From a virus (Duplodnaviria > Heunggongvirae > Uroviricota > Caudoviricetes), in IMG/VR virus record IMGVR_UViG_2563366960_000002: DNA of 64,000 nucleotides; one strand, given 5' to 3'. The notes under the pieces were generated by a model. It had not been told where the DNA came from, did no database searches, and worked only from the letters and a program-made list of their open reading frames with translations. The position numbers and the translations under genes are program-made. Positions 2,752-50,827 of this stretch are shown here, piece after piece (position 1 is the stretch's first letter; every line of letters begins with the position of its first letter).

Positions 2752-5482
<2,731 letters not shown>

Positions 5483-5515
5483 TTAATTAGAATAATTCGC
5501 ATCGTGTTTTAACGG

Positions 5516-5537
5516 AATTTAACACTAGTCACTTGTT
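5516..5537 (-). promoter_or_regulatory. Candidate late promoter for prt-pro
   Basis: On the minus strand AACAAGTGACT-agtgt-TAAATT, in the prt/darB divergent intergenic region. Confidence 0.4.
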
Positions 5538-5548
5538 AAGGATTACCA

Positions 5549-8500
5549 ATGAACAAGCTATCTATGGGGGTGTTTCGCTGTTCAAGTGTCAGCGAAATAT
5601 TGAAATACATTAGGGCAATAACATCTCACCGAGCGCCGATTAAATACGGCGTGGAAAAGGTGGAAGGCAAAAGCTATGACCGACTGCGCCGGGAGGCGAA
5701 TCAGAAGGCGATAGATTTGCTTAATTCGCTGGTGGACGGCGCGACACTGACAGATGAACAGCGCCAGATCCTGGCTGGGTACACCGGTGAAGGCGGCATT
5801 GGCGGGTCCGTCTCCGAATATTACACACCAAAGCCGATCGCTGAAGGTGTCTGGGAGATCATGAAGCTCTACGGCGCGGACGTAGGTAACACTCTGGAAC
5901 CATCGGCGGGAACCGGCGTTTTTAATGAGACAAAACCGGTTGGTACGGTGATGACCGCGACTGAGATCAGCAGTGTTTCCGGTCGTATAAACCAGCTGTT
6001 GCACCCGGAAGACAGCGTACAGATTTCTCCGTTCGAACAACTGGCTGTAAGCACGCCTAACGATTCATTCGACCATGTTGTGGGTAACGTTCCGTTCGGT
6101 GGTCGTGATAACACACGCAACATCGATAAGCCTTACGCAGAAGAAACGGACATGGGTTCTTACTTCATGCTCCGCATGCTGGACAAGATAAAGCCAGGCG
6201 GATTCATGTGCGTGATTGTGCCGCCGTCCATTGTTTCAGGTTCAAACATGAAGCGGTTACGCCTGCGCCTATCACGGAAAGCTGAATTTCTTGGTGCCCA
6301 CCGCTTGCCTACCGGTACTTTTGACGCTAACGGGACCAGTACGGTCGTAGATGTGGTGCTGATGCGCAAACATCCGGCAGAGATGGCTGAGAAAATCCCC
6401 CTGGTGGATGAAAGCACTCTCGAATCGGCAAATGTGCTTTGGTCAACGTTTATTTCTGGCAAGTGGTTTGAAAAGGATGGCCGCCGGTTTGTTCATGGCA
6501 CCCAGGAAAAGGGCTTCCAGGGGCGTATTGAGGTTCGTGCCGACGGTCAGATTGATAACCAGGCTCTTAAAGCGAAGCTGATTCATCGTTTCGAAAGCCG
6601 TATCGACTGGTCTTTGCTCGATATGGCTGAACCGTCACCGACCGCAGACGTTGTTGGTGAAGGGGAAATGCGCCTGATTAATGGCGTATGGCAAAAATAT
6701 GCTGGTGGTCGCTGGATTGAAGCTGATGCAGGGAAGGAACTTAAGATCGATGCTGCCAGTTATGGCGCGGATAGCTGGGAGGCTCTTCAGCGTAACCTGA
6801 CTACAACAGAAGGCCGTCTCGGCATGACATTTACCCAGATGGCAAATGTCCGCGATAAGTACACCACATCAATCAGCGACGATATGGTGCAGCTGGTGGA
6901 CTGGATTAACAGCCAGCCTGAAAAATACCGTGAACGCTTGTATCGCGGGGCGATGATTGGCCGGATGTTAATTGAATATCAGGACATGAAGGCCGCCGGG
7001 CATAGTGCTGAACAAATCGAACAGCAGCGCCTTTCTCTGGTATCCCGTTTGCAGGCAGAGATTGACCGTTTTGGTAACCCCGGTCGCGGTCCGATAGCGA
7101 AATTATCGGGGAGCGGTGCGCGCGCCTGGTTTGCTTTCCGTGGTGCAATTAAGCTGGATGGCACTATTTCTGACGAGCTGACAGGAAAACTGGTTACGCA
7201 TGATTCCAGCGCCAGTTATGACTCCACCAGCTATCAGGACACCCTGCGTTATCTCTACAGTGATCTCACTCGCGATCCAATCCAGCTCGATGATTTCCGC
7301 CTTGCGTTTACCGGCGAACTGCCAGCCAGTGATGACGAGTTGCTTAATTTATTGGCCAGCACCCCTGGCATTGCGGTTTCACCGTATGGCGGGATTGTTC
7401 CGTTCGCCCGCGCCACCAGCGGCGACATTAACGAGATAGTGGCACCAAAACAGGAATTCCTTGCCACACTCCCCGACGGTCCAGTAAAGAACAACGTCCT
7501 TAATCAGCTGGCAGCGATCGAAGAGAAGCGCATCAAGACGCCAGCAGAGAATATCCGCTTTAAGCTCAATAGCCGTTGGTTCGACCGTTCCGTCATTCTG
7601 GAATTTTTGCAGGAAAACGGCTATCCGGATCTGCGCTATGTGCAGTCAGTGCAGCTGGAAGGCGACGAAATGGTTTCTGACACCTATCACGGTGGTGATG
7701 GTCTGTTCGTCGGGCACCGATACGGTGTCGTCCAGCGCAAGGATAAAGAAACAGGCGAGATCCGCTATGAGTGGGACCGTAAATCAGGTGAAAACGCGAC
7801 CGGGTTCCCGGCACAGCTGGAAAAGTATCTCAATGGTGCGCGTATCGGTGGCAAAGATAGCGCGACGGCGAACGGCTACCGCGAGCAGATGGCACTGCTT
7901 GAGGACCAGTTCAATAAGTGGATCAAGACGCACGATCGCTACGATGAGTTGGTTGCCAAATACAACGATGTGTTCAATAGCAATATCCCGTATGAACACT
8001 CTGGCGATCCGCTTGGGTTGAAGGGATTAAGCGGTAAGCGCCAGCCATTTGATTACCAGAATAGCGAGGTGCGCCGACTGTCCGAAGATGGGCGCGGCAT
8101 CCTGGGCTTCGGCACCGGGCTGGGTAAAACGACGACCGCGCTGGCGCTTGAGGCGTTCAACTATGAGAACGGTCGCTCCACCCGTACTGCTTATGTAGTG
8201 CCTAAAGCAGTGCTGGAAAACTGGTATTACGAAGCAAAAGAGTTCCTGAGTGAAGAGGCATTCAGTAACTACCTGTTCGTCGGTCTTGATGTGCTGATGG
8301 ATGGCGATCAGATTCGCCAGGTGCCGGTGCTCGATGAGAACGGTAAACCTGTTCTTGGTACTGATGGCACTCCAGTTATGCGCGATGCTCTTAAGCTGGC
8401 AGATGAAGCCACTATCACGGCGCGGATGAACGCGATCCCGCACTCAAATTACCGTGCAGTCGTGTTTACCAAAGAACAATACGCCCGCATTCCGCTACGT

Positions 8501-11500
8501 GATGACACCGTAGATGAGCATGCACAGGATATGCTTTATGACTTCGTTGCCGCCGGGCGCGTAGCCAGCGCAATGGATTCCGATTCCCATCGCAAAGAGG
8601 CGGCGCGTCGCCGGGTATTGTCGGAGTATTCAGATACCGGTACCGAAAAAGCAGAGAAGTATCCGTACTTTGAGGATATGGGCTTCGACAGCGTGATCGC
8701 TGACGAAGGCCACAACTACCGCAATAGCTATAAAAATGGTCGCGAAGCGTCACAGCTGGCCTATCTGCCCACCAGCGCGGTAGCGCAATCGGCGCGAGAT
8801 ATGGCAATCAAAAACGCGTACCTGATGAAAAAGAATGGCGGGCGCGGACCGGTTCTCCTGACTGCAACGCCAGTCGTTAACACCCCGATCGATGCATACA
8901 ACATGCTTTCTCATGTTCTGCCGAAGGAATACTGGCAGAAGATGGGGATCTACGGTCCTGATGACTTCGTTAAATTCTTCGGCAAGACCAGGCTGGAAAC
9001 GGTACAGAAAATCAGCGGTGAAGTTGAAGAAAAAATGGCGCTGGTGGGCTTTGAAAACCTTGATGCGCTGCGCGGTATATTCCATCGCTGGGTAACGCTT
9101 AAAACGGCGGAAGACGTTAAGGATACCGTGGAGATCCCGGAGCTGGACGAACACCAGCAGGATGCTCCACTTACTGAAGAACAACTGGCGGCGTATGAAG
9201 AATTGCGTCAGCAGGCGGAAGCGGCGGCCAAAGCCAACAATGGCGTAACGACCTCGGTCAATGAAGACGGCGTGATTGAGCACGAGAAAGCCCGTCCGAT
9301 CTTCTCAATAATCAGGGATATGGACCGCGTATGTACTGACATGGACCTGTACTATCGCCGGATCACCTATCGTTTCCTGCCGGAGTATGCCGATGCGGTG
9401 CAGCAGCTGGCGGACAGTTTGCCTAAACAAGCCACCAGCGAAGACGACGACAGTGATGATTCAATCACGCAGCAATCGCAATACTCCCTGATAGATAAGG
9501 GCGAGTTTATTCAGTTGCAGGTTCCGGAAGCGTTTGAGCAGGAAGTGAATAAGCGCCTGGCCAGGTTTGGCATTGACGAACAGACCGTAACTCACCCCTT
9601 TACGCCAAAATACGCGAAGCTGATCGCCACGCTGAAGGAGTTTTTCCCGGAAGGTAAGCAAATCATCTTCACCGATGAAAAAACGCAGCACCAGAAGCTC
9701 AAGCGCATTATCTGCAATGCTCTTAACCTTGAACCTTCAAAGGTGGGGATCCTGAATGCTCAGACGGTTGCCGAGGCAGGTAAAACCGGTAAGAAACTGA
9801 AAGCGGTTAAACCGCCGAAAGAGCTACCGGATGAACCAACAGATGCACAGATAGCGAAATACAACGAGCAAATGGCTCTGTATGACGCCTATATCGCGCA
9901 GCAAAATGAAATGTCGCTGGGCGGGCTGGAAAAGATTGCTGCCGACTTCCAGGAGGGCCGGACTCCGATCATCATCTGCAACAAAAAGGCAGAGGTGGGT
10001 ATCAACCTGCATCGAGGAACGACTGACATCCATCATCTGACGTTGCCATGGACTCCAGCCAGTATTGCGCAACGAAACGGTCGCGGTGCCCGAGTTGGCT
10101 CCAACCGTGCAAGCGTTCGCGTTCACTACTACTGCGGCAAGGGTTCTTTCGATGAATACCGACTGAAGACGCTGAAGCGTAAAGCAGGCTGGATCTCCGA
10201 TATCCTCCGTTCAGATAAGTCAGAAATGGAGAACGCCGACGCCAACGATATGATCGAAATGCAGATGTATACCGCTAAGGATGATGGCGAACGTCTGGCA
10301 ATGATGCAGGTTCAAATGGATAAGGCGAAAGCCGCGCAACGCGCTCGCCAGAAAGAACAGGCTACTATCGACCTTCAGAACTACATCAAGGCGCAGCACG
10401 CAGCTGGTGAGGATGTGGAAGCTCTTACCGCTGAATTGGAGCGAAGCAAAGCGGAACTTGAAAAGACCACCGCCGACGTCGCCAAATTCAAACAGGCGGC
10501 AATGGCCAAGGCAGCGGATAACGCAGACTGGAAGGCACGCTGGGGGAGTGTCCATAACGCTGACCGTATGTTGTTAGCTCAGTATCGTGCATCGTTGAAA
10601 AGTGCCATTCAGCGCAAGGCTAATATCTCTCAAGCCATCTCCCGCTATGAGAAATTATTGAACCGTACCCAGAAGGCTGCGACGGATATCAAACGCCTGC
10701 GCCCGCTGGTGGAGGATGCAATAAATAAAGGCATTCTGGATGTTGATCCTGATCTGGTTAACCATGCGAATGAGTTCCTTGTTATCGACGATCGCTCATG
10801 GCGTGTAGGCCAATACTACGATTGTGCCGGTGATATCGTTCGCATTAAGTCGCTGGACTTCGACAGCCAACGCGCAGACGTGGAGATCATCTTTACCTTC
10901 AAAGGTACCAAATCGGGTAACTGGGATGTGAAGACGCTGGATAAACAGGTGGATGTAACTCCCGATGAAGATGCTGTTATGCAGAAAATCAGTGGTGGCG
11001 TCTCCATCGCCGGGATTAACGGCATCATTTCCTGTGACGATTTCTACCGTTTCCAGCAGCGCGGCATGATCAAAATCACTGACTCATACGGCGTTCAGAC
11101 TACAGAGTCAGGCTATAGCATTGATTTTGTTGGTACCTATACGGACCCACTGAAGCATGCGGTTTACCCGGATCGCCGTGACGGCGCGCTGAAGTCGTCA
11201 ATTGCAAAATGGGTGCTTGGTATGATGTCGGAAGGGAATAACCGCCAGGTCCGTTTGGCAGAAGTATTCCTGACTGAACTGTTTGGCTCCAATTATGGCG
11301 ATGTAATCGCGTCATACGGAGATACGCTATCCCCTGAAGCAATTCAGGAGAAAATAGCGGATGCGATCGCCAGAATGCCGGAGAAAACAAGCCAGGGGGC
11401 TACTCGTAACGGGGATTCTGAACTTGAGGTCACCAATGCCATTTTCGGTACCCATGAGTTCCGGGCGTCAGATTATGAGATCACCACAGCACAGTTTGGC

Positions 11501-12316
11501 ACCATTGGCATTTACAGCAATAAAGACGAGATCAAGCAGGCAATGGACGCTGCAAGCGCGCGTATTGCAGCAGAACGGAAAGCCAATCTGAATCATGCAG
11601 TCGCCGCGCTGACTCAATCGTGGGTAACAGCAATCAGGGAGGCCGCCACCACAGGGAAAATCACACCGGCAATTGCGGATGTCGTAAACGACGGCTCTAA
11701 ATTTATGGATGCCTATCAAATGGATGCGGTGCAGTTGCCATCAGCCTATGGCCAACTCAGCTATCGCATGACCTACAACCTGGTATCAATGTTTTCCGAC
11801 CTTGCCATCCTTGGGCTGGTGGACCTTAACGAGGTTACGCCGGAATTGCTCAGCATTCGCAAGAACCATGTGGAGATATTGCACAGAATTAACACGGTAC
11901 TTTCCGGGCGCACCGATGAAGAGAAACAGGCAGACGCTGATCGGATAAACCTGGCCCTTGGCAACATCACGGAGGAAGAAATTGCCGCCAGAAACGAGAA
12001 ACAAGAAGAGTTATCATCAATACAGGGTGATGCCACCAGCATAGCTCAGTCTCTTGGTCTGAATTATCGCGTATCCACCGCCGACATGAAGATGATGTAC
12101 GCACCAAAATTCGCCGCTGGCGAGGTATTTGGGCTTCAGGAAGCCTCCGGCATGAAAGGGGTTCTTTTCCGTGCGAAAGACGCAATCAAGGCGAAATTCG
12201 GCGCTCGCTGGTTGCCAGCGAAGGCGAAGAACAGCGACTTCCCAGGTAACTGGTGGATTATCGAGACAAAACACAACGTGGCGGACGTTCTGGCCGTCAT
12301 CCAACAATACGCATAA
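5549..12316 (+). CDS. darB: DarB-like giant methyltransferase-helicase (defence against restriction)
   Basis: 2255 aa; N-terminal adenine-methyltransferase-like motif DHVVGNVPFG; SF2 helicase motifs GFGTGLGKTT, DEGHNY, QRNGRGARVG; size and architecture of P1 DarB; AAGGA Shine-Dalgarno. Confidence 0.9.
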   Translation: MNKLSMGVFRCSSVSEILKYIRAITSHRAPIKYGVEKVEGKSYDRLRREANQKAIDLLNSLVDGATLTDEQRQILAGYTGEGGIGGSVSEYYTPKPIAEGVWEIMKLYGADVGNTLEPSAGTGVFNETKPVGTVMTATEISSVSGRINQLLHPEDSVQISPFEQLAVSTPNDSFDHVVGNVPFGGRDNTRNIDKPYAEETDMGSYFMLRMLDKIKPGGFMCVIVPPSIVSGSNMKRLRLRLSRKAEFLGAHRLPTGTFDANGTSTVVDVVLMRKHPAEMAEKIPLVDESTLESANVLWSTFISGKWFEKDGRRFVHGTQEKGFQGRIEVRADGQIDNQALKAKLIHRFESRIDWSLLDMAEPSPTADVVGEGEMRLINGVWQKYAGGRWIEADAGKELKIDAASYGADSWEALQRNLTTTEGRLGMTFTQMANVRDKYTTSISDDMVQLVDWINSQPEKYRERLYRGAMIGRMLIEYQDMKAAGHSAEQIEQQRLSLVSRLQAEIDRFGNPGRGPIAKLSGSGARAWFAFRGAIKLDGTISDELTGKLVTHDSSASYDSTSYQDTLRYLYSDLTRDPIQLDDFRLAFTGELPASDDELLNLLASTPGIAVSPYGGIVPFARATSGDINEIVAPKQEFLATLPDGPVKNNVLNQLAAIEEKRIKTPAENIRFKLNSRWFDRSVILEFLQENGYPDLRYVQSVQLEGDEMVSDTYHGGDGLFVGHRYGVVQRKDKETGEIRYEWDRKSGENATGFPAQLEKYLNGARIGGKDSATANGYREQMALLEDQFNKWIKTHDRYDELVAKYNDVFNSNIPYEHSGDPLGLKGLSGKRQPFDYQNSEVRRLSEDGRGILGFGTGLGKTTTALALEAFNYENGRSTRTAYVVPKAVLENWYYEAKEFLSEEAFSNYLFVGLDVLMDGDQIRQVPVLDENGKPVLGTDGTPVMRDALKLADEATITARMNAIPHSNYRAVVFTKEQYARIPLRDDTVDEHAQDMLYDFVAAGRVASAMDSDSHRKEAARRRVLSEYSDTGTEKAEKYPYFEDMGFDSVIADEGHNYRNSYKNGREASQLAYLPTSAVAQSARDMAIKNAYLMKKNGGRGPVLLTATPVVNTPIDAYNMLSHVLPKEYWQKMGIYGPDDFVKFFGKTRLETVQKISGEVEEKMALVGFENLDALRGIFHRWVTLKTAEDVKDTVEIPELDEHQQDAPLTEEQLAAYEELRQQAEAAAKANNGVTTSVNEDGVIEHEKARPIFSIIRDMDRVCTDMDLYYRRITYRFLPEYADAVQQLADSLPKQATSEDDDSDDSITQQSQYSLIDKGEFIQLQVPEAFEQEVNKRLARFGIDEQTVTHPFTPKYAKLIATLKEFFPEGKQIIFTDEKTQHQKLKRIICNALNLEPSKVGILNAQTVAEAGKTGKKLKAVKPPKELPDEPTDAQIAKYNEQMALYDAYIAQQNEMSLGGLEKIAADFQEGRTPIIICNKKAEVGINLHRGTTDIHHLTLPWTPASIAQRNGRGARVGSNRASVRVHYYCGKGSFDEYRLKTLKRKAGWISDILRSDKSEMENADANDMIEMQMYTAKDDGERLAMMQVQMDKAKAAQRARQKEQATIDLQNYIKAQHAAGEDVEALTAELERSKAELEKTTADVAKFKQAAMAKAADNADWKARWGSVHNADRMLLAQYRASLKSAIQRKANISQAISRYEKLLNRTQKAATDIKRLRPLVEDAINKGILDVDPDLVNHANEFLVIDDRSWRVGQYYDCAGDIVRIKSLDFDSQRADVEIIFTFKGTKSGNWDVKTLDKQVDVTPDEDAVMQKISGGVSIAGINGIISCDDFYRFQQRGMIKITDSYGVQTTESGYSIDFVGTYTDPLKHAVYPDRRDGALKSSIAKWVLGMMSEGNNRQVRLAEVFLTELFGSNYGDVIASYGDTLSPEAIQEKIADAIARMPEKTSQGATRNGDSELEVTNAIFGTHEFRASDYEITTAQFGTIGIYSNKDEIKQAMDAASARIAAERKANLNHAVAALTQSWVTAIREAATTGKITPAIADVVNDGSKFMDAYQMDAVQLPSAYGQLSYRMTYNLVSMFSDLAILGLVDLNEVTPELLSIRKNHVEILHRINTVLSGRTDEEKQADADRINLALGNITEEEIAARNEKQEELSSIQGDATSIAQSLGLNYRVSTADMKMMYAPKFAAGEVFGLQEASGMKGVLFRAKDAIKAKFGARWLPAKAKNSDFPGNWWIIETKHNVADVLAVIQQYA

Positions 12317-12349
12317 CAGGAGCGCCCGGTTCGCCGGGCGTCGCATAAT

Positions 12350-12790
12350 ATGGCCACACTATCTGATACAATAAAACCGAATAAAACATATCTTGAGGCG
12401 GTACTGCGTACGGCGTTGTTAGGAAAGACAGAAGACGAATACGTTGATTTCTTCCTGTCAGGGCTACGCGGGCGATTACTGAAAAATCCCCGCCTGTACC
12501 GCAGCTATGGTCCATACTGGCCGGAAATTAAAAAATTATTACTGGAGCGCGGTTATGGTAATTTCGGTCGTCTCGTTGACCGTGACGTTCGCAAAATTTA
12601 CCGTTATGACCGCCCGGCGCTAACACTCATAGCCGCGACGCTCTACAGCCAGGAGCGTTTTGATAATGGTCAGATATACTCAGCCTGGCATTTACTGCCA
12701 GTGCCTGAAGAAGTTGACGACCAGGACTATGAGTTTGAGTCTTACGATTTGGAAGTTGAAGCCTTGGCACAGGCTGGAGAGAAAACTTGA
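12350..12790 (+). CDS. ulx: Ulx-like protein
   Basis: 146 aa directly downstream of darB and overlapping the start of lxc; named by size and synteny. Confidence 0.6.
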   Translation: MATLSDTIKPNKTYLEAVLRTALLGKTEDEYVDFFLSGLRGRLLKNPRLYRSYGPYWPEIKKLLLERGYGNFGRLVDRDVRKIYRYDRPALTLIAATLYSQERFDNGQIYSAWHLLPVPEEVDDQDYEFESYDLEVEALAQAGEKT

Positions 12791-13035
12791 AAAAGCGATA
12801 CTACACAGTAAAGCATGGGACGCTACGAGCATTACAAGAGTTTGCTGACAAGCATAACGTTGAGGTGCGCAGGGAAGGGGGAAGTAAAGCTCTGCGCATG
12901 TACCGTCCGGACGGGAAATGGCGTACGGTCGTCGATTTCAAAACTAACAGCGTTCCCCAGGGCGTCCGCGACCGGGCATTCGAAGAATGGGAGCAAATCA
13001 TCATAGATAATGCATTGCTCCTGAATGCAGATTGA
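12787..13035 (+). CDS. lxc: Lxc/Bof-like C1 co-repressor
   Basis: 82 codons with TTG start, as recalled for P1 bof/lxc; position after ulx. Confidence 0.65.
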   Translation: MKKRYYTVKHGTLRALQEFADKHNVEVRREGGSKALRMYRPDGKWRTVVDFKTNSVPQGVRDRAFEEWEQIIIDNALLLNAD

Positions 13036-13036
13036 C

Positions 13037-13065
13037 AATTTTGCCCGGAATTACCGGGCAAAATT
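13037..13065. terminator. Perfect palindrome between convergent lxc and the RSH gene (putative bidirectional terminator)
   Basis: AATTTTGCCCGG-aatta-CCGGGCAAAATT, 12-bp arms; no clean U-tract so terminator function is uncertain. Confidence 0.4.
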
Positions 13066-13071
13066 AAGCAA

Positions 13072-14199
13072 CTATCCTTCGCTACGAAGATGCTTATCTA
13101 AGAATTTTGTAAACTGGTTTGTTGAGCCAAAATAGTTGGGGTAGGCTTTTTTTAGTGACTTAATGTTATCTGTAGCAACGAGAACAGATATCAACACATT
13201 AGGATCGGAATCGTCTTTATTTAAGGCCTCAAGAGCTTCATCTGCTTCTTTTGTTTTAAATGCGCGAACAGATACAAGGAACATTTTTTTGTTTTTTGTA
13301 TGGGGCTTGTTTTCTGCATTTCTCATTGTGACTAAGTAATGCCCCTTATGATTTTTTGGCAATTTCTTAATCAGATCCGCATCAGAAGTTAGATTTAAGG
13401 CGAGGGTGTATGTGCTTAGTTTCCTCCGTACAGATAAAGCCTGCTCCAGCGCTTTAAGCTCGCCTTCATACTGAGCTACAACTAGTTCATCAAGAATGCA
13501 GGCTTTTTCGTCGTGCGCCACAAGACATCCTGCTAGATAGAAAAATCTTCTCCATTCCGGATGCCCTTCACTTGAAGTTTTCAGCTTGATACCTTCAAGG
13601 GTATCAATTATTTCAAGGCTAGTAGCCCAAGCATGTTGCAATTGAGTTCTTAACTGTATTTCAATTTTTGTTTTTCGCCATGGGTATTGCTCCTCCTTCT
13701 GATCAAAGCAACTGTATGCAAGGTGGATCCCACTATAGCCGCTATTTTTGGGAGTAAGATAATCATACTCTTTAACAATTCTATGAACAGATTTGCTTTT
13801 TAAAAGACGTTCCCTTAGCTGTTTCAACTGATCTAAGTTTCTGACTATGGCTCTACACCCGCCAATGTCCTGCATCCGTGTTAATTTAATTGCATTGCTA
13901 GTTCTGCCGCCATCAAGACTAGGACGCTCAAGTTTATCTATTATGGTAGAAAGTCGCTTAAGTCTTCTTGCAACGAGAATCTTTTTGTCTTTAGCAACCT
14001 TATCTGCCGCTCTAGCCAAATGGTTTTTCATGAGCATTAATGGATAAAGATGTAGCTCACGAAAATTCTGGATCATTTCAATCGCTTTTTGCCTTTCTCC
14101 ATCGCTGCATCCATGCCTTATCAATTGAGCTGCCCTGTCTATTTGAGATTTAGAATAATTTAGCTTGCATTTTTGGCTTTGATATACTTCATTCCCCAT
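13072..14199 (-). CDS. RelA/SpoT-homologue (RSH) nucleotidyltransferase-domain protein, candidate fused toxSAS toxin-antitoxin (CapRel-like) defence protein
   Basis: 375 aa; synthetase-type motifs GRTSNAIKLTRMQDIGGCRAIV (res 98-119), GYSGIH (154-159, Tyr155), EIQLRTQLQHAWA (180-192); about 170-aa C-terminal extension; about 35% GC versus about 50% flanks; occupies the P1 res/mod position. Confidence 0.8.
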   Translation of the reverse strand: MGNEVYQSQKCKLNYSKSQIDRAAQLIRHGCSDGERQKAIEMIQNFRELHLYPLMLMKNHLARAADKVAKDKKILVARRLKRLSTIIDKLERPSLDGGRTSNAIKLTRMQDIGGCRAIVRNLDQLKQLRERLLKSKSVHRIVKEYDYLTPKNSGYSGIHLAYSCFDQKEEQYPWRKTKIEIQLRTQLQHAWATSLEIIDTLEGIKLKTSSEGHPEWRRFFYLAGCLVAHDEKACILDELVVAQYEGELKALEQALSVRRKLSTYTLALNLTSDADLIKKLPKNHKGHYLVTMRNAENKPHTKNKKMFLVSVRAFKTKEADEALEALNKDDSDPNVLISVLVATDNIKSLKKAYPNYFGSTNQFTKFLDKHLRSEG

Positions 14200-14300
14200 T
14201 ACTACTACCTATGTTTTGGTTTAGGAATTTTCTAACATGTAATAACAAATAGAATGGGAAATCAATGGGCTATGAGCAGTAATGCAGGGTATCTTTATAA

Positions 14301-14942
14301 TTAAAGATATCTCCCCTTACCAGTCAATATACCTTGTGGTACATGCTTTTGTGCGAGTGTTTGGGTGCCGCGAATTATGTTAATCAGAGGGCTTAGTAAC
14401 GATGGTTCCTGGCTTGCCTCAACTTCTCCAGCCATTGCCCTGATGTAGTCGGCGCTGGCAACGTTGTTGTATTCCGCCGCAAAGCAACATAGTAACGTCA
14501 GAACATGCTCTGTCGTTATTTCGCTCCAGTTGATGTTGAAAAATTCATCGCCTTTTTTATCGTGTTCGGAATCGAAGATGCTTTGGTGGAGGATGTATTT
14601 GCCGGATTCCTTGCGCGGTAACTTGATCGCTTTCTGGCGTTCCAGCTCCTTGTAAATCTGCATTGCTTCAATCAGTACCGGCCTGCCGTTCATGAAGGGA
14701 TCGCGCAACCTTACACGCTGGCCAACTCGACCAGTAATAAAGCTGTTTTCCTCTTCCACCAGCACGATAAAACCTTTTTCCTCTTTCTCACGCAATTCGC
14801 GCAGCAACTGGAGTTCCATATCGCGGCGGCGTTCAGGGTAGCTGGTCCGCTCAGCCATTATCAGCTCGTTGTTGATCCATGCAGCAGTCATTGACGCCGG
14901 TTTGCCGACGCTCATCGAAACAACGCATATTTTCTTATCCAT
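14301..14942 (-). CDS. mat: Mat-like protein
   Basis: 213 aa from ATG 14942 (AGGGG Shine-Dalgarno; track start 14969 is GTG); located between ref and the hotspot as in P1. Confidence 0.55.
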   Translation of the reverse strand: MDKKICVVSMSVGKPASMTAAWINNELIMAERTSYPERRRDMELQLLRELREKEEKGFIVLVEEENSFITGRVGQRVRLRDPFMNGRPVLIEAMQIYKELERQKAIKLPRKESGKYILHQSIFDSEHDKKGDEFFNINWSEITTEHVLTLLCCFAAEYNNVASADYIRAMAGEVEASQEPSLLSPLINIIRGTQTLAQKHVPQGILTGKGRYL

Positions 14943-15130
14943 AGCGCCCCTACAAAAAAGAAAAGCCACCAGCGGCGGCTTAGCAATACAACAAAAGGTA
15001 GCGCCCGGTACTCAGACTGTGCCGTCCATGGAATATTTGAAAAGGGATCCATCCGTACCGGGCATGTGATGATTCTGACTGAAGTCACTTGTCAGTTGTC
15101 AATTATTTCAGATTAAAAATAATATATTTA

Positions 15131-15691
15131 TTAGTGCATAATGTTTGCCATCTCATAGGCGTCAGCCAGCAACTCCATCTCTGACTTGTTCAGCAAGGTG
15201 AATTCTTTCTTGCCTCCAACCACACCATCGGCATGAACAGGGACCAGCCAGGGATATTTTTCTCTTACTTCAGCCGGTGCTGCATGCTGGTGGTGCCATC
15301 TACAAAGGGGCAATTGCTTTTTGTGACAACCCGGCGCGGTACGACCGGAGATATGGTGCAAAGATACCTCTTCAGATATTACTCCATGCATGTAGCAGGC
15401 AATGCAGGGGAGAGCGCCAAGAGCACTGGCGATGCTCCGTTCCTCCGCTGTCGGTGTTCGCCCCTTCAAGCCACGAGATTTTATCTTTACCGCACTTTTC
15501 CGCGTTTTGCTGGCTGGTGGGCGCTCTTTCTGTTTAGCGATACGGCGGTCGATAGAATCCCGCATTTTCTGATATTGCGATTCTCGCCAGGCGGGGTCAG
15601 CCAACTTTTCCCGTTGCCGAGCGATCGCTCGTTCTCTGGCTGCCTTCTGCCACTCGCGGCGCTGTTCAAGTTTTTGTTCGATTGTTTTCAT
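15131..15691 (-). CDS. ref: Ref, RecA-dependent HNH endonuclease
   Basis: 186 aa from ATG 15691; basic N-terminal region and HNH-like core (CHKKQLPLCRWHHQHAAPAEVREKYPWL); matches P1 Ref length and sequence. Confidence 0.85.
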   Translation of the reverse strand: MKTIEQKLEQRREWQKAARERAIARQREKLADPAWRESQYQKMRDSIDRRIAKQKERPPASKTRKSAVKIKSRGLKGRTPTAEERSIASALGALPCIACYMHGVISEEVSLHHISGRTAPGCHKKQLPLCRWHHQHAAPAEVREKYPWLVPVHADGVVGGKKEFTLLNKSEMELLADAYEMANIMH

Positions 15692-15696
15692 ATGGC

Positions 15697-15722
15697 AAAA
15701 AAAAGGCGGCCTAATGGCCGCC
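15697..15722 (-). terminator. Intrinsic-terminator-like hairpin plus U8 in the ref leader
   Basis: Minus strand: GGCGGCC-atta-GGCCGCC followed by TTTTTTTT, ending about 6 nt before the ref ATG and downstream of the Op2 promoter. Confidence 0.5.
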
Positions 15723-15779
15723 AATGATGTCAAGGAGTGAAGTAATGGCAACGTCTTCGTAGTTGACAAAAACTGCGGC

Positions 15780-15806
15780 TCAATTATAGCAATCAATTAG
15801 AGCAAT
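15780..15806 (-). promoter_or_regulatory. Overlapping C1 operators with embedded -10 (ref promoter, Op2-like)
   Basis: Reverse complement ATTGCTCTAATTGATTGCTATAATTG: one full operator overlapping a second operator-like copy that contains TATAAT. Confidence 0.7.
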
Positions 15807-15936
15807 GGTAGATATTTTGTTTATCGCGAATCACATTTTTTCACTTCAGTACCTGTGTGCTATACTCCTTCTTGATTGATTGGATGCGGAATACAAACCC
15901 GCTCTTTTGTGCAGCCTGGCTCCTTGCCAGGCTTTT

Positions 15937-16248
15937 TTATTTCATCATGGAAGCTGTTAACGCTTTGGATCTTGCTGAACTGATTGAAAGGGCATTGTTT
16001 ACCTTACCCAGGAGTTCGCCAAATTCCGCCATCACTCTAGTAAGCCCGCGCCGCGCTTCCTCCTCCGTTGCATTCATCACAAAATGTTCAGCGCTCCGCA
16101 TGCTTTTAACGGGGAACGCAACAGATATCGAGTCGATATCAGGCATCCTATCGCTCAATTTTACGGTGACAATGACAGATGGTGACTGAATTTGAGAGCT
16201 TACAGACAGCACCACATATTTTCCGTCTATTTTGAAATCCTTCCGCAT
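15937..16248 (-). CDS. C1-controlled small protein between cre and ref (cra-like)
   Basis: 103 aa; ATG 16248 with GGTGA Shine-Dalgarno; operator immediately upstream; no domain recognised. Confidence 0.5.
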   Translation of the reverse strand: MRKDFKIDGKYVVLSVSSQIQSPSVIVTVKLSDRMPDIDSISVAFPVKSMRSAEHFVMNATEEEARRGLTRVMAEFGELLGKVNNALSISSARSKALTASMMK

Positions 16249-16264
16249 GCGTCACCATAAATAT

Positions 16265-16281
16265 CAAATAATTAGAGCAAT
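16265..16281 (-). promoter_or_regulatory. C1 operator
   Basis: Reverse complement ATTGCTCTAATTATTTG; lies between the cre stop and the downstream small ORF. Confidence 0.7.
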
Positions 16282-16298
16282 CAAGCGCAAATGAACGG

Positions 16299-17330
16299 CT
16301 AATCGCCATCTTCCAGCAGGCGTACCATTGCCCCCGTTTCACTATCCAGGTTACGGATATAGTTCATGACAATATTCACGTTGGTCCAGCCACCAGCTTG
16401 CATGATCTCCGGTATTGAAACTCCGGCGCGGGCCATATCTCGCGCGGCTCCGACACGGGCACTGTGTCCAGACCAGGCCAGGTATCTCTGACCAGAGTCA
16501 TCCTTAGCGCCGTAAATCAATCGATGAGTTGCTTCAAAAATCCCTTCCAGGGCGCGAGTTGATAGCTGGCTGGTGGCAGATGGCGCGGCAACACCATTTT
16601 TTCTGACACGGCAAAACAAGTAGTTATTCGGATCATCAGCCACACCAGAGACAGAAATCCATCGCTCGACCAGTTTAGTTACCCCCAGGCTAAGTGCCTT
16701 CTCTACACCTGCGGTGCTAACCAGCGTTTTCGTTCTGCCAATATGGATTAACATTCTCCCACCGTCAGTACGTGAGATATCTTTAACCCTGATCCTGGCA
16801 ATTTCGGCTATACGTAACAGGGTGTTATAAGCAATCCCCAGAAATGCCAGATTACGTATATCCTGGCAGCGATCGCTATTTTCCATGAGTGAACGAACCT
16901 GGTCGAAATCAGTGCGTTCGAACGCCAGTGCCTGTTTTGCACGTTCACCGGCATCAACGTTTTCTTTTCGGATCCGTCGCATGACCAGTGAAACAGCATT
17001 ACTGTCACTTGGTCGTGGCAGCCCGGACCGACGATGAAGCATGTTTAGCTGGCCCAAATGTTGCTGGATAGTTTTTACTGCCAGACCGCGCGCCTGAAGA
17101 TATAGAAGATAATCGCGAACATCTTCAGGTTCTGCGGGAAACCATTTCCGGTTATTCAACTTGCACCATGCCGCCCACGACCGGCAAACGGACAGAAGCA
17201 TTTTCCAGGTATGCTCAGAAAACGCCTGGCGATCCCTGAACATGTCCATCAGATTCTTGCGAACCTCATCACTCGTTGCATCGACCGGTAATGCAGGCAA
17301 ATTTTGGTGTACGGTCAGTAAATTGGACAT
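16299..17330 (-). CDS. cre: Cre site-specific tyrosine recombinase
   Basis: 343 aa; sequence recognised as P1 Cre (MSNLLTVHQNLPALPVDATSDEVRKNLMDMFRDRQAFSEHTWK...); loxP lies 420 bp upstream. Confidence 0.98.
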   Translation of the reverse strand: MSNLLTVHQNLPALPVDATSDEVRKNLMDMFRDRQAFSEHTWKMLLSVCRSWAAWCKLNNRKWFPAEPEDVRDYLLYLQARGLAVKTIQQHLGQLNMLHRRSGLPRPSDSNAVSLVMRRIRKENVDAGERAKQALAFERTDFDQVRSLMENSDRCQDIRNLAFLGIAYNTLLRIAEIARIRVKDISRTDGGRMLIHIGRTKTLVSTAGVEKALSLGVTKLVERWISVSGVADDPNNYLFCRVRKNGVAAPSATSQLSTRALEGIFEATHRLIYGAKDDSGQRYLAWSGHSARVGAARDMARAGVSIPEIMQAGGWTNVNIVMNYIRNLDSETGAMVRLLEDGD

Positions 17331-17337
17331 TTAACAC

Positions 17338-17559
17338 TCAGATAATGGTTTTAAGTAAAGTGTACAGGATCGGCTCTGCCTTTACCTGTTTATGGTTCTC
17401 GTCATAGAAACGCCAGCGACCGCGCGTGCGTTCTATTTTCTCTTCACCGCGAGATAATGACAGTTGGTAACTATCACGCTCAAACCCTTTTGCCCGCCAG
17501 TAACCACGGTTTTTCTCAAGCTCAAGATGAGTGGACACTTTAGCAGCTGAATATCCCAT
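17338..17559 (-). CDS. 73-aa ORF between loxP and cre
   Basis: ATG with strong GAGGTG Shine-Dalgarno; stop 8 nt before the cre ATG; basic protein, no domain recognised. Confidence 0.45.
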   Translation of the reverse strand: MGYSAAKVSTHLELEKNRGYWRAKGFERDSYQLSLSRGEEKIERTRGRWRFYDENHKQVKAEPILYTLLKTII

Positions 17560-17656
17560 TTTTCACCTCTGATTGATTGGTGGTGCTAAGTGCGCTACGC
17601 GAAATCTGTAGGACTAACACCGCCAACATTTCGCAGATTTTACGTAGCGCAACCTT

Positions 17657-17729
17657 GATCAAATGATCAAGTGATCACTATTTGACCTGATAAGGTATTG
17701 AACTGTATGGATTTACAGGTAAATTGATC
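17657..17729. promoter_or_regulatory. GATC (Dam) cluster in the cre promoter region
   Basis: Four GATC sites, three within 20 bp (GATCAAATGATCAAGTGATCAC); P1 cre promoters are known to be Dam-sensitive. Confidence 0.4.
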
Positions 17730-17748
17730 ATGTTCAATAACCCCTAAG

Positions 17749-17782
17749 ATAACTTCGTATAATGTATGCTATACGAAGTTAT
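17749..17782. other. loxP: loxP recombination site
   Basis: Exact ATAACTTCGTATA-ATGTATGC-TATACGAAGTTAT. Confidence 0.98.
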
Positions 17783-17825
17783 TAGGTCCGAAGAGGAGTT
17801 TACGTCCAGCTGCGCATAAAAATCA

Positions 17826-17842
17826 AGAATTATTAGAGCAAT
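17826..17842 (-). promoter_or_regulatory. C1 operator (immC cluster)
   Basis: Reverse complement ATTGCTCTAATAATTCT. Confidence 0.6.
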
Positions 17843-17902
17843 AAATTTTGAGAGAAAAATCCCACTCCACCAGCCAAAAACTGGATTGTTTTTCATAGTT
17901 GT

Positions 17903-17929
17903 TTGACAATTGCTCTAATAAATTATAGT
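17903..17929 (+). promoter_or_regulatory. Promoter (-35 TTGACA) overlapping a C1 operator, upstream of coi/c1
   Basis: TTGACA immediately followed by ATTGCTCTAATAAATTA (16/17 to consensus) and TATAGT. Confidence 0.7.
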
Positions 17930-17970
17930 TTTGCCGCCGTTTCGTAATACGACTTTGGATTCACTATTTA

Positions 17971-18084
17971 ATGTGTCTTCAGCGTTGTAGAGCGGCTCAG
18001 AAGGAAATGAGCAAACAGGGAAACCTTATACAACGGCATTACAGCTATGCATTGCTCATCTTACACACAGCGCAATGTTGTTAG
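17971..18084 (+). CDS. Small leader ORF upstream of coi (imcB-like?)
   Basis: 37-codon ATG ORF in the immC leader; contains an operator-like ATTGCTC start; weak evidence. Confidence 0.25.
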   Translation: MCLQRCRAAQKEMSKQGNLIQRHYSYALLILHTAQCC

Positions 18085-18163
18085 ATTACCCCAGCATGGA
18101 TCATGGGTGAAACAGTAGGTCAGAGCTTCAGGCTCTGTGTTGTCAATACAGTGAGGCATAATT

Positions 18164-18373
18164 ATGGCTTTCATTCCACCAACCATCGACGACGTTAGAC
18201 ATTGCTCTAACGCTTTATCTGTAGACCCCGCCGAAACCGACGCTGCCCGCGCCATTGCTGAACACTACTCAAAGATATCCAATCAGGAGTACCGCATCAC
18301 CCAAGACGACCTGGATGATCTCACTGACACAATCGAATATCTCATGGCCACTAACCAGCCAGACTCACAATAA
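18164..18373 (+). CDS. coi: Coi, C1 inactivator
   Basis: 69 aa; GAGG Shine-Dalgarno; directly upstream of c1 as in P1 immC. Confidence 0.85.
   Translation: MAFIPPTIDDVRHCSNALSVDPAETDAARAIAEHYSKISNQEYRITQDDLDDLTDTIEYLMATNQPDSQ
18201..18217 (+). promoter_or_regulatory. C1 operator-like site inside coi
   Basis: ATTGCTCTAACGCTTTA: the 5' half matches the operator consensus. Confidence 0.45.
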
Positions 18374-48627: not shown

Positions 48628-48703
48628 TGGTGGCCCCTACCGGACTTGAACCGGTGACCGTGCGATTATGAGTCGCCAGCTCTAACCACTGAGCTAAAGG
48701 GCC
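48628..48703 (-). tRNA. tRNA-Ile2 (anticodon CAU, ileX-like)
   Basis: 76 nt, GGCCCTTTAGCTCAGTGGTTAGAGC...ACTCATAATCG...GGTTCAAGTCC...GGGGCCACCA; closely resembles E. coli ileX; cloverleaf checked by hand. Confidence 0.85.
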
Positions 48704-48730
48704 GGATTACTGCCAATTTTGCTTACGCTT

Positions 48731-49558
48731 TTATTTCACCGGAACAAACGGAACAGCGGCATTACTGGTCATATACTGCGGTAATGTACCGTTCCATTTG
48801 TTGATCGCTTCCAACTCCATAACACCGGGGTTCTGGCGCAGAGCTTCACCACGTAAACGAATGGCATCAGCTTCGGCCTGGGCTTTTGTGCGAATAGCAT
48901 CAGCCTGTCCGGCAGCTTCCGCGCGCAGCATGTTGGCCTCTGCTTCACGTTGTTTGACCTCTTGCTCGCGTTGCAGGGTTTTTTGGTTTGCCGTAACTTT
49001 GGCGTTAATACTGTCAATAACTGTTGGCGGATATTCTGGCTTACCTACATAAGAGAGGCTCATCACCTGAATGCCGATTGGCGTCATTTCTTCCTGAATG
49101 TCTTTAAGGGCTGCATCAAGCAATTCAGATTTGCCACCGTCGATAAATTTGTCGGTGGTCATTTTGCTGGCTAACCGGTTCAGAGCATCTGCAACCTTCT
49201 GGCGTAGATCGGTATCAGTAATATCATCTACACCTTTGCGATAGGTCTGAAATACCGTTGTGACTTTTGCTGGATCAACCTTGTAGGCTACGCCGATGTG
49301 GTAACCAATGGTTGTTCCGTCGCTCATCTGGAAGCTGAACGGCTCATCGTATGTCTTCATTTGCTTAAAGGTCGGGAAGATATAAACTTCAGTATTCAAG
49401 CCTGTCCAGTAGCGACCAACACCAACTACTTCACCGATACCTTTATCATCCCCCAGCTTATTTACTTTGATCCCTACGTTACCTGGCTCTACCCGATCGC
49501 ATCCGGTCAGACATAAAGAACCCAAAATAATCGCTGCACTAATCAACGTTTTTTTCAT
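48731..49558 (-). CDS. plp: SPFH/band-7 domain lipoprotein (Plp-like)
   Basis: 275 aa; lipobox LTGC after signal peptide; HflK/prohibitin-like core and Ala/Glu-rich coiled-coil. Confidence 0.75.
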   Translation of the reverse strand: MKKTLISAAIILGSLCLTGCDRVEPGNVGIKVNKLGDDKGIGEVVGVGRYWTGLNTEVYIFPTFKQMKTYDEPFSFQMSDGTTIGYHIGVAYKVDPAKVTTVFQTYRKGVDDITDTDLRQKVADALNRLASKMTTDKFIDGGKSELLDAALKDIQEEMTPIGIQVMSLSYVGKPEYPPTVIDSINAKVTANQKTLQREQEVKQREAEANMLRAEAAGQADAIRTKAQAEADAIRLRGEALRQNPGVMELEAINKWNGTLPQYMTSNAAVPFVPVK

Positions 49559-49775
49559 TAATTAATTTCCTGGTTTTTTCACGAAAAAAGACTACTGCGA
49601 AAGCCGGGTAAATGAGCGCGAGAAGGACTCCCAACAATACAAGTATTGTGCTGTTAGATGAGATCATATTTGGCAAAAGCCAAACATACAGAACCAGTGA
49701 CACAATCAAACAGAGGACGGCATAAATATATAACCGCACCCATAGCGTTCGACATTTGTTCGGATTGTTCTGCAT
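49539..49775 (-). CDS. upl: Small membrane protein upstream of plp (Upl-like)
   Basis: 78 aa, two TM segments; overlaps the plp start. Confidence 0.55.
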   Translation of the reverse strand: MQNNPNKCRTLWVRLYIYAVLCLIVSLVLYVWLLPNMISSNSTILVLLGVLLALIYPAFAVVFFREKTRKLINEKNVD

Positions 49776-50038
49776 CCTCTCACTCCATTATTTAACGAAT
49801 AAAAAAGCTGCGGTGCCGGGTACCTCCCGGTGTCCTTTGGCTGGTTATCCACCGTGGACGGGGAAACAAGGAGAAATGAATGGACTGATATAACCATTTC
49901 CCCGCGTGCGCTTAGCCGCATTCACCGCAATGGTAAGAGCACTTGGCTGGCTGGGCGGCGATGACGCCTGTATGCATTTGGTGATCCGGTTCTGCTTCCG
50001 GCATTCGCTTAATTAGCCAAATACTCTTAACGTTGCGC

Positions 50039-50125
50039 TGGCGGAGAGTAATGGAATCGAACCATCATCGCTTGCGCTATGGGACGGTTTTCAAGACCGC
50101 TTGAGCACCATGCTCCCTACTCTCC
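50039..50125 (-). tRNA. tRNA-like element with UGA anticodon loop (Ser-like, class II; possibly degenerate)
   Basis: 87 nt; acceptor GGAGAGT/ACTCTCC-G-CCA, anticodon arm GCGGT-CTTGAAA-ACCGT, T-loop TTCGATT; D-arm atypical. Confidence 0.35.
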
Positions 50126-50260
50126 CGTTATTGTGGCGACCGGTGCTGATCTCCGGCTTGCGGTTATTTCAGACTCTCACGGGCGTTTAATTGCCCCGCC
50201 GAACAGCTCTTTTCCGCAATAGCTGCAATGTCTTTCGCGCATCAGCCTGCGCATTCACCA

Positions 50261-50349
50261 CAACGTTGAGAACACTGGTTGTCACGCGCAACGCAACATT
50301 TATTCGTAGATTGGGATATGACCCCGTTACGCCAGTGTTCTCAACGTTG
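50261..50349. repeat. Perfect 18-bp inverted repeat with 53-nt spacer inside the tRNA cluster
   Basis: CAACGTTGAGAACACTGG ... CCAGTGTTCTCAACGTTG. Confidence 0.6.
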
Positions 50350-50578
50350 TAGTGCCGGTTACGGTTCCGGCCAGGCCTCTTCCTCAACGGGGTGTTCTCC
50401 ATACGGACTACCGTTTATTGGTCGTTCCTGCGGTTTATGTTGTGAAGCCAGATGCTTATCTTCTGGTTGCTTCAAAGAGCTGCACTTCATCACAACGGTA
50501 AGAGCATTTATGGCTCGCATCGCGGGAAAAAGCCCACGGTAGAGAGTCGAACTCTACAAATGCTCTTACCTGTTGTGT

Positions 50579-50654
50579 TGGTGCCGGTTAACGGGATCGA
50601 ACCGCTGACCATTCGCTTACAAAGCGACTGCTCTACCAACTGAGCTAAACCGGC
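50579..50654 (-). tRNA. tRNA-Thr (anticodon UGU)
   Basis: 76 nt, GCCGGTTTAGCTCAGTTGGTAGAGC...CTTTGTAAG...GGTTCGATCC...CCGGCACCA. Confidence 0.85.
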
Positions 50655-50658
50655 AATT

Positions 50659-50745
50659 TGGTGGGGAGTGATGGAGTCGAACCACCCGAGTCGCAATGAC
50701 AGTAGATTTACAGTCTACCCCGCTACCCCTACGGACTAACTCCCC
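50659..50745 (-). tRNA. tRNA-Tyr-like (anticodon GUA, long variable arm)
   Basis: 87 nt; acceptor GGGGAGT/ACTCCCC-A-CCA, anticodon arm GTAGA-CTGTAAA-TCTAC, T-loop TTCGACT; D-arm atypical. Confidence 0.6.
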
Positions 50746-50750
50746 TAAAT

Positions 50751-50827
50751 TGGCGATGGTGGGTGGATTCGAACCACCGACCGACAGCTTAGAAGGCTGC
50801 TGCTCTATCCTACTGAGCTACACCATC
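50751..50827 (-). tRNA. tRNA-Arg (anticodon UCU, argU-like)
   Basis: 77 nt, GATGGTGTAGCTCAGTAGGATAGAGC...CCTTCTAAG...GGTTCGAATCC...CACCATCGCCA. Confidence 0.8.

Follow-up and report, generated by a model that had tools for sequence, protein, structure and literature searches.

What does the single low-GC gene between lxc and mat in a P1-like phage-plasmid encode, and what would it do in the lysogen that carries it? An initial annotation, made from the letters of a 64,000-nucleotide stretch of viral DNA (the window), had read the gene as a RelA/SpoT-like (RSH) nucleotidyltransferase and a candidate CapRel-type fused toxSAS toxin-antitoxin. We followed up this reading by comparing the locus with phage P1 and its relatives and the protein with known structures, homologues and public alleles. 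We estimate a probability of about 90% that positions 13072..14199 on the minus strand encode a CapRel-family fused toxin-antitoxin, carried as superinfection-defence cargo of the phage-plasmid, as judged by homology to CapRel-SJ46.

The lxc-mat interval of P1-like phage-plasmids

The window is a P1-like phage-plasmid. On the left of the gene, darB (5549-12316), ulx (12350-12790) and lxc (12787..13035) lie on the plus strand. lxc encodes 82 aa, is 98% identical to P1 lxc at the nucleotide level and forms the conserved left border, convergent with the CapRel gene. The conserved right border, mat (maturation control; 14301..14969), lies upstream of the gene on the same, minus, strand and is followed on that strand by ref (15131-15796), c8 (15937-16248), cre (16299-17330) and cra (17338-17559). 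The mat gene is collinear with its P1 counterpart (end 3468) and is annotated with 213 aa on public contigs.

A BLAST comparison of window positions 11000-18000 with P1 returned 98.2% identity over 11000-13033, 95.2% over 14301-17765 and nothing between. The breakpoints, 13033 and 14301, correspond to P1 positions 9752 and 3468, and the replaced P1 interval, 3469-9751, holds res and mod. The whole swapped cassette (13034..14300) comprises 1267 bp at 38.7% GC and extends from the lxc stop codon to the mat stop codon. The initial annotation had placed the gene where P1 carries res/mod plus IS1; res and mod are indeed the genes replaced, but the element annotated in this interval of the P1 reference is an IS5 inside mod, and no IS1 is annotated there. 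Likewise, the reported drop in GC, to about 35% against flanks of about 50%, is real but smaller: the ORF measures 39.2% (34.6% at third codon positions), and the flanks are at ~49-51% (left 50.7%, right 48.6%). The absence of a separate antitoxin ORF is borne out, as positions 13034-14300 contain no second ORF and no co-oriented small ORF. The cassette holds one gene, flanked by lxc and mat, which are conserved P1 genes. Pfam and PADLOC searches of ten further ORFs from other low-GC parts of the window found no additional defence system.

The proposed comparison of this locus across P1-like genomes reveals what else the slot can hold. Phage SJ46 carries CapRel in the identical slot, with the same order and orientation of genes (darB-ulx-lxc > < CapRel < mat). 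The slot is empty in RCS47, encodes a 316-aa protein with a weak match to PDC-S34 in JL22, and contains an unannotated 346-aa ORF matching PDC-S31 models in MH422554. Together with P1 itself, these genomes mark the lxc-mat interval as a precise swap site, occupied by type III restriction-modification (res/mod), by CapRel, by one of two further candidate defence genes or by no cargo at all.

Homology to CapRel-SJ46 and predicted structure

The ORF starts with ATG, encodes 375 aa plus stop, and is intact and full length. All RSH motifs listed in the initial annotation are present and in the order given: GRTSNAIK (residues 98-105), DIGGCRAIV (111-119), GYSGIH (154-159) and EIQLRTQLQHAWA (180-192), with Tyr155, whose codon occupies 13735-13737 on the minus strand, located within GYSGIH. 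RelA_SpoT (PF04607) is the sole Pfam family in the protein and covers residues 79-193 (13621..13965, minus strand) with E=6.1e-13, above the curated cut-off; this synthetase core includes R79, R116 and the G-loop residue Y155. The Pfam search found no domain over the ~180 C-terminal residues, so the description of the C-terminal part as devoid of a recognisable domain holds at the Pfam level. The HD hydrolase/TGS/ACT architecture of long RSH proteins (~700 aa) is absent from this 375-aa protein, in which Pfam found only PF04607.

Structure databases are more informative about the remainder of the chain. Searched against every PDB chain, the sequence matched CapRel-SJ46 end to end (7ZTB_A, E=1.8e-185, query residues 1-371 against chain residues 1-370), and a second CapRel-SJ46 structure, 9ERV, scored E=9.4e-185. 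In a MAFFT alignment with gp058 of Salmonella phage SJ46, the two proteins (375 and 373 aa) are 74% identical and the lone gap is a single residue; the PADLOC candidate-system model PDC-S33 spans residues 12-371 (E=7.6e-86). Both proteins consist of a fused toxSYNTH domain, anchor, pseudo-zinc-finger domain and YXXY motif, and both are encoded in the same lxc-mat slot.

The match extends to the residues on which CapRel-SJ46 depends. In that protein, R79 and R116 coordinate ATP, and the G-loop Y155 is required for defence (Zhang et al., 2022, PMC9712102). Substitution of A77, R116, V338, L339, A341, A351, Y352 or Y355, including Y352A and Y355A, makes CapRel-SJ46 constitutively toxic (PMC9712102). 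The window protein keeps A77, R79, R116, Y155, V339, L340, A342, A352, Y353 and Y356, and it also shares L280, L307 (L308 in the window protein) and YPNY with CapRel-SJ46. In an alignment of 79 homologues with identities of 52-95%, R79, R116, Y155, A352 and Y353 are invariant (79/79), and Y356 is kept in 78/79. The end-to-end match, the retained key residues and the shared slot all uphold the initial CapRel-type fused toxSAS reading.

Three parts of the protein can be delimited by comparison with CapRel-SJ46. Residues 1-272 (13384..14199, minus strand), with N-terminal helices and a toxSYNTH pyrophosphokinase fold, are the equivalent of the toxic SJ46 fragment 1-272, the boundary of which we took from the Methods of Zhang et al. 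(2022), and are 78% identical to it. Residues 286-343 (13171..13344, minus strand) form the predicted pseudo-zinc-finger sensor/antitoxin domain. The putative neutralisation motif, Y353-P-N-Y356 (13132..13143, minus strand), is recognised as YXXY from the sequence and from its conservation in homologues.

An AF2 model computed on the 79-homologue alignment (mean pLDDT 85.9, pTM 0.85) supports this division. The β-sheet core of the toxin part is modelled with strands at 75-80, 113-119, 140-147, 157-163 and 178-185. The C-terminal domain is modelled as strand-strand-helix-strand (E286-294, E307-315, H316-330 and E335-343), with pLDDT mostly 67-91. In the corresponding domain of CapRel-SJ46, which lacks zinc cysteines, three antiparallel strands form a sheet and a helix connects the second to the third (PMC9712102); the window protein has no cysteine beyond residue 234. 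The predicted C-terminal fold is thus the published pseudo-zinc-finger topology. A Foldseek search of the PDB with the model placed 9ERV and 7ZTB on top (E ~1e-41 to 1e-42). The structural comparison with CapRelSJ46 that the initial annotation had proposed therefore gives a significant RSH-fold match by sequence, as a full-length PDB hit, and by model. The annotation had also held that the C-terminal sensor might be novel if the protein were not a close CapRel homologue. This premise fails: by sequence, the gene is a close, full-length CapRel homologue, and its sensor has diverged (62% identity over the antitoxin fragment) but is of the same, known pseudo-zinc-finger kind.

The model superimposes on the open crystal forms, 9ERV and 7ZTB, with an rmsd of 9-10 Å at 70% identity. 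This global measure suggests that the model adopts another inter-domain pose, one compatible with the closed form. The authors' own AlphaFold closed state of CapRel-SJ46 likewise differed from the open crystal form (Zhang et al., 2022, PMC9712102).

The same searches bear on the first alternative, namely that the protein is a small alarmone synthetase making (p)ppGpp or toxic (p)ppApp, which would make it a regulator of metabolism or a toxin that depletes ATP, and not a tRNA modifier. RelA_SpoT is the sole Pfam domain, the next-best PDB matches are small alarmone synthetases (RelP, RelQ and YjbM; E 2e-8 to 2e-4, 20-25% identity, catalytic core only), and the core of the AF2 model also matches small alarmone synthetase structures in Foldseek, with weak hits to RelP, RelQ and YjbM and to FaRel2 (8PU3). 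Moreover, some toxSAS toxins do produce (p)ppApp (background in PMC9712102). However, the synthetase matches are weak (E of the order of 1e-8 to 1e-4) and confined to the core, as against 74% identity over the full length of CapRel-SJ46, which is a demonstrated tRNA pyrophosphokinase when activated. RelP/RelQ-type enzymes also lack a counterpart to the ~180 extra C-terminal residues of the window protein, which are homologous to the CapRel sensor. We regard an alarmone synthetase as very improbable.

The CapRel reading comes with a mechanism that has been worked out in the homologue. CapRel-SJ46 is an abortive-infection defence (PMC9712102); in its closed state the C-terminal YXXY plugs the adenine site (PMC9712102), and the activated enzyme pyrophosphorylates tRNA, an activity shown for SJ46 only (Zhang et al., 2022, PMC9712102). 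By homology, in an uninfected lysogen the C-terminal pseudo-zinc-finger domain of the window protein would fold onto the N-terminal toxSYNTH domain, and YPNY (353-356) would slot between R79 and R116 and block the ATP site. A protein of an infecting phage would then bind the hypervariable sensor surface, formed by helix 270-279 together with the sheet and helix of 286-343. Trigger binding would keep the enzyme open, allowing it to move pyrophosphate from ATP onto the 3' CCA of tRNA; translation would halt and the infected cell would abort the infection. Toxicity, tRNA pyrophosphorylation and phage protection by the window protein are thus expected by analogy with CapRel-SJ46.

Plasmid toxin-antitoxin systems classically act in post-segregational killing. 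Given that this toxin-antitoxin is borne by a low-copy plasmid prophage, the gene might serve mainly as an addiction or stabilisation module of the P1-like element and not as a phage sensor. Toxin and antitoxin are, however, one polypeptide, which offers no obvious basis for differential decay. The slot is empty in RCS47, and other P1-like phages fill it with res/mod or with unrelated candidate defence genes, an occupancy typical of defence cargo; the closest relative acts in abortive infection. We regard an addiction role, too, as very improbable. The fusion also separates the CapRel-family protein of the window from bicistronic toxSAS systems, such as PhRel/ATphRel of mycobacteriophage Phrann and FaRel2/ATfaRel2 (8PU3). 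These share the translation-inhibiting RSH toxin fold and the theme of phage-borne defence but have a separate antitoxin gene, whereas none lies beside the window gene.

Sensor divergence and possible triggers

Divergence from CapRel-SJ46 is unevenly distributed. Identity is 78% in the toxin fragment (1-272), 62% in the antitoxin fragment (273-373) and 88% in the YXXY block. Across the 79 homologues, variability is concentrated at residues 270-337, and the catalytic core and YXXY are conserved, matching the published pattern. The highest mean column entropy among regions, 2.53 bits, belongs to residues 270-279. This hypervariable segment (LTSDADLIKK; 13363..13392, minus strand) is the equivalent of the anchor-1 helix α9, the trigger-contact helix in SJ46, and carries D275.

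Helix α9 of CapRel-SJ46 contacts Gp54 of Bas11, and most of the activation by Gp54 is lost with the substitution N275D (Zhang et al., 2024, PMC11578894). In this Gp54-contact helix, the window protein has D275, I277 and K279 where CapRel-SJ46 has N275, K277 and S279; the sister allele found on E. coli plasmids also has N275. On the strength of D275, the window protein would be predicted to be unresponsive to Gp54. The window protein further differs from CapRel-SJ46 in a β6-β7 loop that is one residue longer and in its C-terminal tail.

The second informative relative is CapRel-Ebc from Enterobacter chengduensis, which belongs to the same family and has the same architecture. It differs from the window protein in its G-loop (GYGG instead of GYSG), resides outside the P1 slot and has an unrelated native upstream sequence. 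Because the Ebc DNA came from a machine-read supplement with frameshift errors that make tblastn identities unreliable, we compared only the cleanly translating C-terminus. Over the sensor core (279-334), the window protein shares 55% identity with SJ46 and ~52% with Ebc, and SJ46 and Ebc share 42% with each other, the Ebc values being approximate. Two sensor stretches of the window protein, the KNHKGHYLVTM strand and the ADEALEAL helix start, are identical in Ebc and lacking in SJ46, and the FLVSV strand is shared with SJ46. The window sensor is thus a third version of the pseudo-zinc-finger, combining an Ebc-like strand and helix start, an SJ46-like strand, a unique loop and D275. In a separate check, the allele differed from all four that had been studied experimentally in 2022 (SJ46, Ebc, Kp and EcHT) when compared with the synthetic genes of the supplement, from which the recovered sequence covers EcHT without its C-terminus.

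Three triggers of the family have been described. [quoted passage not shown] Since the window sensor differs from those of SJ46 and Ebc about as much as they differ from each other, its trigger is not readable from sequence. A capsid protein is one candidate; a small protein resembling Gp54 and, following the Ebc precedent, a phage-host complex are others. That the sensor might recognise something unlike all of these (a SECphi27/Bas-type capsid protein, Bas11 Gp54 or T7 Gp0.4-FtsZ) is a tentative idea, suggested by the sequence divergence, that we lean against while taking it seriously. If it is true, the natural D275/N275 allele pair would be a ready-made test of how single changes retune a bacterial pattern-recognition receptor.

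Expression, selection and distribution of the allele

The cassette-specific upstream region (14200..14300, minus strand) contains a block conserved among alleles, with a putative promoter and an AGG-rich ribosome-binding region. The promoter-like block comprises TTGATT at 14265-14260 and TGTTATTACAT at 14247-14237. The pattern CCATTGATTT...TTTGTTATTA.ATGT is conserved in the window, SJ46 and E. coli plasmid alleles, and the surrounding bases differ. The candidate -10 element carries a T to C change relative to SJ46 and is weaker than that of SJ46. A consensus promoter and terminator scan of 12700-15200 called neither a promoter ahead of the gene nor a terminator behind it; the assignment of a promoter rests, accordingly, on the upstream block shared among alleles and is a provisional one. 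For CapRel-SJ46, the corresponding 100-200 bp were enough to give native expression (Zhang et al., 2022, PMC9712102), and this region would likewise be expected to drive expression of the window gene in the lysogen.

The closest allele in complete-genome collections, WP_032313380.1, is 93.4% identical at the nucleotide and 95.5% at the amino acid level and occurs on 52 PLSDB plasmids and in 83/5426 complete E. coli genomes. It occupies the same slot (e.g., in NZ_CP102949.1), as does the gene of phage vB_EcoM-673R5, the record of which annotates it as split in two; both have the same downstream hairpin as the window. The window gene and WP_032313380.1 are separated by 58 synonymous and 17 non-synonymous differences, the latter including residue 275. 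The resulting dN/dS of 0.065 indicates strong purifying selection on the gene. The coding sequence is ~70% identical to that of SJ46, a distance at which synonymous sites are saturated and dN/dS is not computable. This level of identity and saturation argues that the window and SJ46 alleles are old lineages that were exchanged into the slot, with no recent derivation of one from the other.

No match exceeded 93.4% in nucleotide searches of collections of phages, plasmids and complete E. coli genomes. These complete-genome searches had suggested a rare allele, a view discarded when exact-sequence look-ups put it on hundreds of draft contigs. The exact 375-aa protein is present on ~276 public E. 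coli contigs under the name 'RelA/SpoT domain-containing protein [Escherichia coli]', and the 90% protein cluster, which includes the sister allele, has 313 members. In E. coli draft assemblies the exact protein is found in the same gene order, and window positions 9072-18199 are 100% identical to one of them.

A decaying cargo gene that has lost expression or function, as the missing consensus promoter and the potentially expression-lowering -10 change might hint, is highly implausible in view of the intact full-length frame, the retention of all invariant family residues, the low dN/dS against the sister allele and the occurrence of the exact protein on so many contigs.

The system itself is already known: publications cover the CapRel family, how it works, its structure and its occurrence in P1-like phage-plasmids, and the exact protein and locus are public. 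E. coli P1-like phage-plasmids commonly carry CapRel (2025 preprint, 10.1101/2025.09.12.675607). A literature search by accession for the window allele and its sister found no report. What the window adds is a common natural CapRel allele in the slot of the founding member but with a substantially different sensor, for which data on trigger and phage range would inform CapRel-phage co-evolution.

A perfect 13-bp GC-cored hairpin (13036..13066; MFE -21.8 kcal/mol, z=-5.3) lies between the convergent stop codons of lxc and CapRel, and 0/200 shuffled sequences fold as well. We considered a canonical bidirectional intrinsic terminator and ruled it out: on both strands a T-run precedes the stem and an A-run follows it, and there is no 3' U-run. 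The hairpin may instead act as an insulator or a 3'-end stabiliser. The E. coli plasmid allele has exactly this hairpin, and SJ46 and the empty-slot RCS47 each have a different one at this position; each slot variant has its own GC-rich hairpin right after the lxc stop codon.

Cargo of the lxc-mat interval

Comparison of the window with P1, SJ46, RCS47, JL22 and MH422554 shows that the interval from the lxc stop to the mat stop (13034-14300 in the window) is a precise site of cargo exchange in P1-like elements. This slot holds type III res/mod in P1 and CapRel in SJ46 and the window, and is empty in RCS47. In JL22 it encodes a 316-aa protein with a weak match to the PADLOC model PDC-S34, and in MH422554 an unannotated 346-aa ORF (MH422554 1289-2329) that matches PDC-S31 models (E=2e-16).

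Every slot variant has a GC-rich hairpin directly after the lxc stop, and the hairpin differs from variant to variant. The window copy (13036-13066) forms a perfect 13-bp stem (dG -21.8, z -5.3); its counterparts lie at about 4740-4770 in SJ46 and about 1240-1270 in RCS47. Because a 3' U-run is missing in all variants compared, a textbook terminator is ruled out. The hairpin could act as an insulator between the convergent units or could mark the recombination joint.

Distribution of the CapRel allele

Three annotated collections, of phages, of plasmids and of complete E. coli genomes, contain no record above 93.4% nucleotide identity to the CapRel gene of the window (13072-14199). About 276 contigs, from draft genomes and from assemblies of sequencing runs, encode the exact protein, and SRR640014_192 matches the locus at 100% identity. 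The allele thus seems to be restricted to lineages not represented by a complete genome in these collections.

The record of phage vB_EcoM-673R5 (ON470615.2) divides the CapRel homologue (4799-5898) between two neighbouring ORFs, one called a 'RelA/SpoT family protein' and the other a hypothetical protein, and mat is likewise split in this record. The split could reflect a frameshift in the record or a genuine disruption.

The mat-ref interval and the starts of both genes

The E. coli plasmid NZ_CP102949.1, which carries the sister CapRel allele, has an additional gene between mat and ref (6031-6780) that encodes a DUF4145 domain and gives a marginal PADLOC match to PD-T7-4 (E=0.005). This gene is missing from the window, where the matching place is at about 15000-15130; the mat-ref interval is thus a second small variable spot, adjoining the CapRel slot.

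The mechanical ORFs of ref (15131-15796, minus strand, 221 aa) and mat (14301-14969, minus strand, 222 aa) open with TTG and GTG, respectively. Products called on public contigs are shorter, at 186 or 144 aa for ref and 213 aa for mat, and the real starts are probably internal ATGs.

tRNA genes

On its minus strand, the window carries five clustered tRNA genes at 48628-50827, with the identities Met(CAT), Ser(TGA), Thr(TGT), Tyr(GTA) and Arg(TCT). Annotated sets differ among related P1-like phages (Asn/Thr/Met in RCS47, Ser/Thr/Asn in D6 and Tyr/Thr/Met in Ro157c2YLVW), so the tRNA complement varies. The presence of the cluster alongside a putative tRNA-targeting defence gene is a curious co-occurrence only.
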